In this document: positions 36,601-39,600 of the stretch, in pieces
Numbering within the stretch: position 1 is the first letter of the stretch
Layout of the letters: every line of letters begins with the position of its first letter
DNA from: a virus
Lineage: Duplodnaviria > Heunggongvirae > Uroviricota > Caudoviricetes
DNA length: 42,776 nt
Direction: 5' to 3' (one strand)
Virus record (IMG/VR): IMGVR_UViG_2874945390_000010
Span: 1 to 42,776 of that record
Program-made: the position numbers

Positions 36601-39600
36601 AATGCGGCTAAGCGCACGCGGAACAGTTAAAACCAAAAACAGTGTTATGGGTGGATTCTCTGTATCCGGCGTTAATTGTTAACTGGTTAACGTCACCTGG
36701 AGGCACCAGGCACCGCATCACAAAACTCATTGTTGAGGGCGCGATAATGAAAACGTTATTACCAAACGTTAATACGTCTGAAGGTTGTTTTGAAATTGGT
36801 GTCACTATCAGTAATCCTGTATTTACTGAAGAGGCCATTAACAAAAGAAAACACGAACGGGAGTTATTAAATAAAGTATGCATTGTTTCAATGCTGGCCC
36901 GTTTACGTCTGATGCCAAAAGGATGTGCACAATGAATCCAGTATTTGCACTTATTCTGACGGTTTTTCTTGTTTCCGGAGAGCCAGTTGATATTGCAGTC
37001 AGTGTTCACAGAACAATGCAGGAATGTATGGCAGCAGCAACCGAACAGAAAATTCCAGGCAACTGTTATCCGGTCGATAAAGTTATTCACCAGGATAATA
37101 ACGAAATCCCGGCAGGATTTTAAAACAGCACCGTAATAAATATCCAGTTTCATTCTTATATGTCAGCAATGGCAGAGATTTGTTCACCCTTAAATCTGTG
37201 ATGAGGTTTATCAATAATGAGCACTGATAAAGAAGAATTTGGGTAATGACTCCAACTTACTGATAGTGTTTTATGTTCAGATAATGCCCGATGACCTTGT
37301 CATGCAGCTCCACCGATTTTGAGAACGACAGTGACTTCCGTCCCAGCCTTGCCAGATGTTGTCTCAGATTCAGATTATGTCGCTCAATGCGCTGAGTGTA
37401 ACGCTTGCTGATAACGTGCAGCTTTCCCTTCAGGCGTGATTCATACAGCGGCCAGCCATCCGTCATCCATACCACGACCTCAAAGGCCGACAGCAGGCTC
37501 AGAAGACGCTCCAGTGTGGCCAGAGTGCGTTCACCGAAGACGTGCGCCACAACCGTCCTCCGTATCCTGTCATACCGTCCTCCGTATCCTGTCATACGCG
37601 TAAAACAGCCAGCGCTGACGTGATTTAGCACCGACGTAGCCCCAATGTTCGTCCATTTCAGCGCAGACAATCACATCACTGCCCGGTTGTATGCGCGAGG
37701 TTACCGACTGCGGCCTGAGTTTTTTAAGTGACGTAAAACCGTGTTGAGGCCAACGCCCATAATGCGTGCACTGGCGCGACATCCGACGCCATTCATGGCC
37801 ATATCAATGATTTTCTGGTGCGTACCGGGCTGAGAGGCGGTGTAAGTGAACTGTAGTTGCCATGTTTTACGGCAATGAGAGCAGAGATAGCGCTGATGTC
37901 CGGCAGTGCTTTTGCCGTTACGCACCACGCCTTCAGTAGCGGAGCAGGAAGGACATCTGATGGAAATGGAAGCCACGCAAGCACCTTAAAATCACCATTA
38001 TACACTAAATCAGTAAGTTGGCAGCATTACCAGAATTTGCACTATATTGCGAAGCAAAAAATGTCAAAGTAAGAAAACGCCTAGGAATTAAAGGTGGTTT
38101 TTACTGGACTACAGCAAAAAAATTATCTGTTGCAATCTCCCGCTGCATTACCGCAATGGATGACAACGATTATGATGAAGACGACTTTAAAAAACCCGTC
38201 CGCGTCAATTTGCCCGTTGTTGACGACCTTCCGCCAGAAGGCGTGTTTGATACTGAATTCTGCAACCGCTATGAAAAAGGCGGGAAAGATGGCATCACAA
38301 TGACATTTATCGGCCCTTCCCCCTCTGTTCAGGACAAATCAGCCAGCACTGATAATACCAACATCAACGGCGAAGACATGACTGAGATTGAGGAGAGCAT
38401 GCTTCTACCTGTCTCCGGTCAGGAACTGCCCATTCGTTGGCTTGCTCAACACGGCAGCGAAAAACCAGTAACGCACGTTTCACGCGACGAACTCCAGGCA
38501 TTACACATTGCACGGGCTGAAGAACTACCGGCTGTTACTGCCCTGGCTATTTCGCATAAAACCAGTCTACTCGACTCGCTGGAGATTCGCGACCTCCACA
38601 AACTGGTTCGTGACACTGACAAAGTTTTCCCTAATCCTGGTAATTCAGACCTGGGACTAATAACTGCTTTTTTCGAAGCATACCTGGACGCTGACTACAC
38701 TGATCGGGGTCTGCTGACAAAAGAGTGGATGAAAGGAAATCGTGTTTCACGCATCACCCGCACGGCTTCCGGTGCTAATGCTGGCGGTGGGAACAAAACC
38801 GATCGCAATCCGAATTTAGTACACACCCTCGACACACTGGATGTGGAGATTGCAGCAGCCACACTTCCGATGGATTTTAATATTTATGAAATTCCGGGCA
38901 GCGTTTATCGTCGCGCAAAAGAAGTAGTCCTGAAAAAAGAAAGTCCGTTCAAAGAATGGTCCGCAGCACTTCGTGCAACCCCGGGTATTCTGGACTATTC
39001 CCGCGCCGCTATTTTTGCACTTATCCGAAGCGCACCCCCTGAATTTTATCACTACCCGGGACGCCTTCAGGGGTATATCAACGCCTATTTGACGGAAACT
39101 GATCACGAGAACCCCAGCAAGGAAACTCTCACAGCTGCCCGGCATACGCCGGAAAAAGATATCCTGGAAAAAATTAACCGCGAGGTGGTTACTGAGCGTG
39201 AAACAGAAGAAGAAAAACCACAACCATCTGACGCAATGGCAGGTGAACAGGCAACAACTGAAACAATGGAACCGGATACAACTGAACATTGCCAGAACGC
39301 GCAGTCGCTGGATGCTCAGTCGCAGGTGAGTTCCGCTAACCAAGTAAAAGTCACCGCTGACGAAGTAAACAAAATTATGCAGGCAGCCAATATCAGCCAG
39401 CCTGACGCCGATAAGTTACTTGCTGTATCGCGTGGTGAATTTGTTGAGGGGATTAGCGACCCTAATGATCCGAAATGGGTCAAGGGGATCCAGACTCGCG
39501 ATTCTGTGAACCAGAACCAGCATGAATCGGAACGGAACGACCAAAAAGCGGAACAAAACAGCCCAAATGCGTTACAAAACGAGCCAGAAACGAAACAATC

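Follow-up and report, generated by a model that had tools for sequence, protein, structure and literature searches.

A 22-bp tandem duplication in insB of an IS1 copy in a Shigella boydii prophage and its predicted effect on autonomous transposition

The IS1 copy and its place in the prophage

The IS1 copy described here lies in a lambdoid prophage, next to mtfA, in the S. boydii chromosome. The stretch of DNA that was analyzed, 42,776 nt in length, is called the window throughout. The element is inserted 25 nt into (codon 9 of) a prophage exonuclease gene, which has 813 aa in its native form and is located downstream of dicB and ydfD. It is read on the minus strand, so that its left inverted repeat (IRL) is the high-coordinate end. 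The features of the element and of its insertion site are as follows.

37217-37241, plus strand: start of the prophage exonuclease gene (25 nt), separated from the rest by IS1 (by alignment; an uninterrupted annotated CDS in the E. coli empty-site locus)
37234-37241, no strand: left copy of the 8-bp target-site duplication AGAATTTG (by alignment with the empty site of E. coli FDAARGOS_536)
37242-38031, minus strand: IS1, 790 bp (768 bp plus the 22-bp duplication), from the end pattern search, the alignment and a transpos_IS1 match
37701-37976, minus strand: insA, intact, 91 aa with a GTG start, containing Zn_ribbon_InsA and HTH_Tnp_IS1 (ORF call, profile search)
37719-37725, minus strand: A6C (AAAAAAC) motif for the programmed -1 frameshift, intact; it occupies element nt 307-313, phased as TTA AAA AAC
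37997-38024, minus strand: promoter-like site in the IRL, CTGCCA, 16 nt, TATAAT (alignment; promoter match of 10/12)
38018-40456, plus strand: remainder of the exonuclease gene, an 812-aa ORF that starts at a TTG inside the IRL and contains Exonuc_VIII and Rv2179c-like domains
38032-38039, no strand: right copy of the target-site duplication AGAATTTG (by alignment with the empty site)

A pattern search places the terminal repeats at 37242-37264 and 38009-38031, with 0 mismatches to the degenerate pattern GGTRATG..CCAACTTA, and alignment shows that these are the ends of the full-length Shigella IS1, both of them intact. The length of 790 bp given in the first-pass annotation agrees with these ends. 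The features that define the IS1 family are all found, namely imperfect terminal inverted repeats, a 91-aa InsA (PF03811 with 69.8 bits and PF12759 with 95.1 bits), the A6C motif, whose role in IS1 frameshifting is described in PMC12428005, an IS1-type transposase domain and a target-site duplication of 8 bp, where 8 or 9 bp is the size reported for IS1 (PMC12428005). Neither the end pattern search nor a further search found a second IS1 copy in the window.

Alignment to a reference IS1 (768 bp, from Shigella flexneri pINV-Y394) gave one 22-nt gap and one mismatch; with one repeat taken out, 767 of the 768 positions are identical. The inverted repeats, the 91-aa InsA, the A6C motif and the 8-bp target duplication are thus common to both, and the element described here differs from the 768-bp isoform by the 22 extra bases in insB, by an InsAB' that ends at residue 135 of 232 and by one base in the -10 region. 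The 768-bp isoform is common in Shigella and in many E. coli, where PGAP names the transposase of near-identical copies either 'IS1 family' or 'IS1-like element IS1F family'.

The base change in the -10 region is at window position 37999 (element nt 33), where the fourth -10 base, a G in the IS1 copies used for comparison, is an A, turning TATGAT into TATAAT. It is the sole base difference from the pINV-Y394 IS1 apart from the duplication, and it raises the promoter match from 9/12 to 10/12. The 70-nt left end has no exact counterpart among the 67,138 IS1 left ends of complete E. coli genomes, the best match being 69/70. A 25-mer with TATAAT is present in diverged IS1 relatives of about 90-93% identity, which come from three loci of Candidatus Erwinia dacicola and from four metagenome contigs.

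The empty site, holding AGAATTTG just once, was found in many E. coli genomes with flanks that are 99.9% identical, and its span of 792 equals 1590 - 790 - 8. The 8-bp target duplication together with this empty site indicates that the element arrived by transposition and that it interrupts the exonuclease gene. The remaining 812-aa ORF is in frame and would replace just the first six codons of the native exonuclease. An insertion shared by ancestry with other E. coli was considered and rejected, as the IS1 sites there are different: in NZ_CM128588.1 an IS1 lies 222 nt into the exonuclease gene and in NZ_AP045771.1 one lies in dicB. These insertions are independent, and the dicB-ydfD-exonuclease region seems to have received IS1 more than once.

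Several other observations concern the prophage. A second insertion sequence in the window encodes a 343-aa IS630-family transposase at 30383-31414 (DDE_3; transpos_IS630, 258.5 bits). The tail-tip gpJ-like region on the minus strand (6658-11519) is read as separate ORFs of 655, 139, 346 and 448 aa, with the Ig_J domain broken off where the 655-aa ORF stops; this points to a fragmented gene in a degraded prophage. At 41714-41751, at the 3' end of the integrase gene and adjoining mtfA, there are two overlapping perfect tandem repeats, one with a 13-nt unit GAAAATATTCCAA in 2.1 copies and the other with a 10-nt unit in 1.9 copies; this may be the attachment-site region of the prophage.

The duplication and the predicted transposase

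Within insB the first-pass annotation had reported a perfect 22-bp tandem duplication, and both direct reading of the window and Tandem Repeats Finder bear this out. The features that bear on it are listed here.

37553-37574, no strand: first copy of the 22-bp tandem duplication (direct reading, Tandem Repeats Finder; phasing as in the first-pass annotation)
37575-37596, no strand: second copy (direct reading, Tandem Repeats Finder, alignment; the array is 37552-37597)
37570-37572, minus strand: premature TGA at the repeat junction (..ACG GTA TGA), after which the reconstructed InsAB' ends, at residue 135
37570-37782, minus strand: 5' part of the insB frame, a 70-aa ORF that ends at the new stop (ORF call)
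37257-37670, minus strand: 137-aa ORF in another frame, whose last ~105 residues are the C-terminal part of InsB, covering DDE_Tnp_IS1 positions 26-131 (ORF call)

The 22-mer ccgtcctccgtatcctgtcata occurs at the first of these places and again directly adjoining it. Tandem Repeats Finder describes the array with period 22, 2.1 copies, 100% matches, no indels and a score of 92, which is the top score among all arrays in the window, and it is the sole array with a period of at least 20. The array extends over 46 nt, leaving the repeat boundaries uncertain by 2 nt (AC); the segment starts with an AC that also comes after it, resulting in a 2-nt microhomology at the repeat. By arithmetic, the chance expectation for a perfect 22-nt tandem repeat is 42776 x 4^-22, or about 2e-9 per window. 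The window contains the 26-mer across the repeat junction a single time, and 0 of 100 shuffles contain it.

Since 22 is not divisible by 3, the insB frame is disrupted. The earlier claim that InsB is split over two ORFs is confirmed by the 70-aa and 137-aa ORFs listed above, and nothing suggests that the 137-aa ORF would be translated. InsAB', the -1 frameshift product, was reconstructed with both repeats and with one repeat taken out. In the latter case it has 232 aa and matches PF03400 (DDE_Tnp_IS1) along 131/131 positions with 245.3 bits; for NCBIfam transpos_IS1 (NF033558), whose cut-off is 100, it scores 243.5 bits. With both repeats the product ends at residue 135 and carries no aberrant tail. 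This stub contains Zn_ribbon_InsA and HTH_Tnp_IS1 in complete form and keeps DDE_Tnp_IS1 positions 1-34 of 131, so that 97 of the 131 are lost.

Inspection of motifs in the 232-aa product points to an acidic triad of D109 (EMDEHW), D166 (MTDGW) and E191 (RIERHN). Between D166 and E191 lie 24 residues, a distance in keeping with the DDE motif that Ohta and colleagues reportedly described in 2002. The stub would keep the first acidic residue and lack the putative D166 and E191, that is, two of the three catalytic residues. An autonomous copy needs an unbroken insAB' frame with all three acidic residues, and here a TGA follows residue 135. As the InsAB' stub is without the second D and the E, the copy is predicted to be unable to make its own transposase. 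The loss of InsAB' that the first-pass annotation foresaw is therefore strongly suggested by the stop at residue 135 of 232 and by the 34 of 131 DDE_Tnp_IS1 positions that are left.

Distribution of the allele

The window is identical to CP026836.1 (5,106,737 bp, GCA_002950135.1) across the IS1, duplication included; this record was reached by an exact look-up of the 812-aa ORF that starts in the IRL. This record is listed as S. boydii (PMC12817139), and the chromosome is probably that of strain ATCC 49812, judging from consecutive accessions, NZ_CP026837.1 being the ATCC 49812 invasion plasmid. By blastn, no IS1 was found on that 213-kb pINV plasmid (213,410 bp). It carries many other IS elements, of the IS630, IS4, IS66, IS91, IS3 and IS21 groups.

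The full-length IS1 was compared with PLSDB and with 74,819 IS1 places in 5,426 complete E. coli genomes. The top matches were all 768 bp, with 97.0-97.1% identity over 790 columns, which amounts to the gap and one or two mismatches. The duplication junction was absent from PLSDB and from the 5,426 complete E. coli genomes, where a 91-nt junction query gave only split matches spanning 69 nt, and the junction 26-mer was absent from GTDB species representatives, JGI metagenome contigs and IMG/VR. In the collection used for exact-product look-up, the product of the IS1-exonuclease junction was found in no other assembly and the product of the 137-aa ORF in no record. The same kind of look-up with InsA did not return the CP026836.1 chromosome among its places. 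Together, the insertion and the duplication both appear to be private to one strain. A literature search found no account of a tandem duplication in IS1 insB.

Two draft contigs with the exact 70-aa product were examined as possible carriers and rejected, as each is a normal IS1 that is cut at the contig end, ..GGACGGTT(G). Both ends are within 1-2 nt of the duplicated segment, and the idea that this is an assembly break hotspot was also rejected, because an exact 70-aa query selects just such ends. A 97-aa product called in the source was set aside as a diagnostic marker, since it is also called in normal IS1 copies (22,125 blocks).

Origin, mobility and decay of the copy

The reading that we prefer, with a probability of roughly 85%, is that a normal IS1 transposed into the prophage and that a private 22-bp duplication then broke insB and left a non-autonomous copy. 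By this course, IS1 would have inserted itself at codon 9 of the lambdoid prophage's exonuclease gene in the S. boydii chromosome, and replication slippage or template switching at the 2-nt AC microhomology would later have duplicated 22 bp in insB. The duplication would shift the frame and put a TGA at the junction, cutting InsAB' to residues 1-135. With its ends, promoter, insA and frameshift site intact, the copy would be expected to behave as an InsA-producing non-autonomous IS1, which the transposase of other IS1 copies may move and whose lesion may revert by loss of one repeat. The target duplication shows that the element moved as a normal IS1. That it did so before the duplication arose is the simplest order, because the transposase acts best on its own copy and its action in trans is weaker. 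Slippage or template switching is also the most likely origin of the repeat. Hairpin-assisted slippage was considered and found unsupported, with folding z-scores of -0.69 and -0.17 for the two DNA strands of the single-copy region.

The duplication could instead be an artefact of assembly or consensus, the real element being a normal 768-bp IS1. The allele is found in a single public record, CP026836.1, and nowhere else among the collections searched, so that it rests on one assembly, and IS copies are repeats, where assemblies most often fail. Perfect short tandem duplications can also result when de Bruijn contigs are joined without trimming of their overlaps. Against this, CP026836.1 is a single 5.1-Mb chromosome contig, which we take to be part of the PacBio set of historical Shigella genomes that Kim et al. 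reportedly described in 2018. A REBASE methylation entry for ATCC 49812 (PMC8495745) is weakly consistent with SMRT data. Long reads cover an entire 790-bp IS1 and reach into the unique sequence on either side, and the errors in their consensus tend to be indels of one base and not perfect 22-mers. No similar duplication is seen elsewhere in the window, and altogether we consider an artefact unlikely. Another option is that the 22-bp repeat is the footprint, for example a target-site duplication, of another mobile element that was inserted and then excised. Direct repeats around a lost insertion can persist as tandem duplications; yet known bacterial transposons make, to our knowledge, target duplications much shorter than 22 bp, there are no extra bases between the two 22-mers, and the 2-nt microhomology fits slippage. 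The probability of such a footprint is close to negligible.

A different kind of explanation is that the copy was kept or selected as a repressor-only IS1, in which the consensus -10 boosts insA, the duplication removes the transposase and IS1 is damped across the genome. In its favor, one element combines the duplication with the G-to-A at nt 33, each of them private to it among the E. coli and Shigella copies that were compared, and IS1 transposition is strongly repressed when InsA is provided in trans (PMC12428005). However, with InsA acting as the repressor of its own promoter, an improved -10 may alter its output little, and in a normal copy InsA already greatly outweighs InsAB', so that the loss of InsAB' adds no repression. 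Since InsA autoregulates and is made in far larger amounts than InsAB' by normal copies, selection as a repressor is not needed to account for the element; two neutral mutations in a decaying copy suffice, and an allele confined to one strain gives no population sign of selection. We therefore regard this explanation as very unlikely. The more elaborate proposal, in which the copy is a dedicated source of IS1 inhibitors (InsA and a DNA-binding InsAB' stub) that restrains IS1 expansion and is reactivated by repeat collapse, is highly improbable.

Under the preferred reading, of a normal insertion followed by a private duplication, the copy is best described as non-autonomous rather than immobile. 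The first-pass annotation had called it immobilised in cis, and this stands for transposase that the copy would supply by itself. As a statement of full immobility the term is too strong, because the ends are intact, InsAB' acts in trans, donors are likely, InsA is retained and the repeat may collapse. Perfect tandem repeats are unstable, and the slippage that made the repeat can also delete one copy; such a loss could restore insB precisely. InsAB' supplied in trans was reported to move IS1 copies that are otherwise immobile, as well as cassettes flanked by IRL and IRR, with an action about 25-fold weaker than in cis even when the enzyme is over-produced (PMC12903888). The copy would be mobilised only by the transposase of other IS1 copies. 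No other IS contributes as many insertions as IS1 to the Shigella genomes studied (PMC7373316), and with this abundance donor copies in the same cell, in the form of intact IS1 copies in the source chromosome, are likely. With insA and its promoter intact, the copy itself should still make the InsA repressor. In its makeup it resembles the non-autonomous IS1 derivatives of Zhang et al. 2025 (PMC12903888), the immobile native copies and the miniIS1 cassette, which likewise keep both IRL and IRR intact and have no functional transposase gene. Unlike the miniIS1 cassette (PMC12903888), it is a natural copy that retains insA and most of insB.

How ordinary such a lesion is can be seen from ten arbitrary places encoding an InsA identical to the one found here. 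Five of the ten have small indels or a deletion in IS1 (1 nt, 2 nt, 4 nt, 8 nt and ~30 nt), some of which could be assembly errors, as could other insB lesions in this set. Three more share one insertion beside fecIR, with six substitutions and no full insB called. To judge from these places, insB decay with retention of insA is common among IS1 copies. The decayed copies in other E. coli and Shigella assemblies are of the same isoform, with intact insA and an insB damaged by small indels, a deletion or stops, and they differ from the copy described here in the kind of lesion: 1-8-nt indels, a ~30-nt deletion and point changes there, a perfect 22-bp tandem duplication, precisely revertible in principle, here.

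The element is therefore IS1 itself with an ordinary loss-of-function lesion, a case of mobile-element decay of a known kind. Outside annotation it is of little importance, and it raises no new question about transposition. For annotation, this IS1 should be listed as non-autonomous and frameshifted, and the prophage exonuclease gene as interrupted. The 790-bp element, being an allele private to the strain, could mark this S. boydii stock, and its perfect tandem repeat could be handy as a natural substrate in measurements of repeat collapse or of IS1 trans-mobilisation. As a minor observation, the IS1 insertion beside fecIR mentioned above recurs in several E. coli assemblies.
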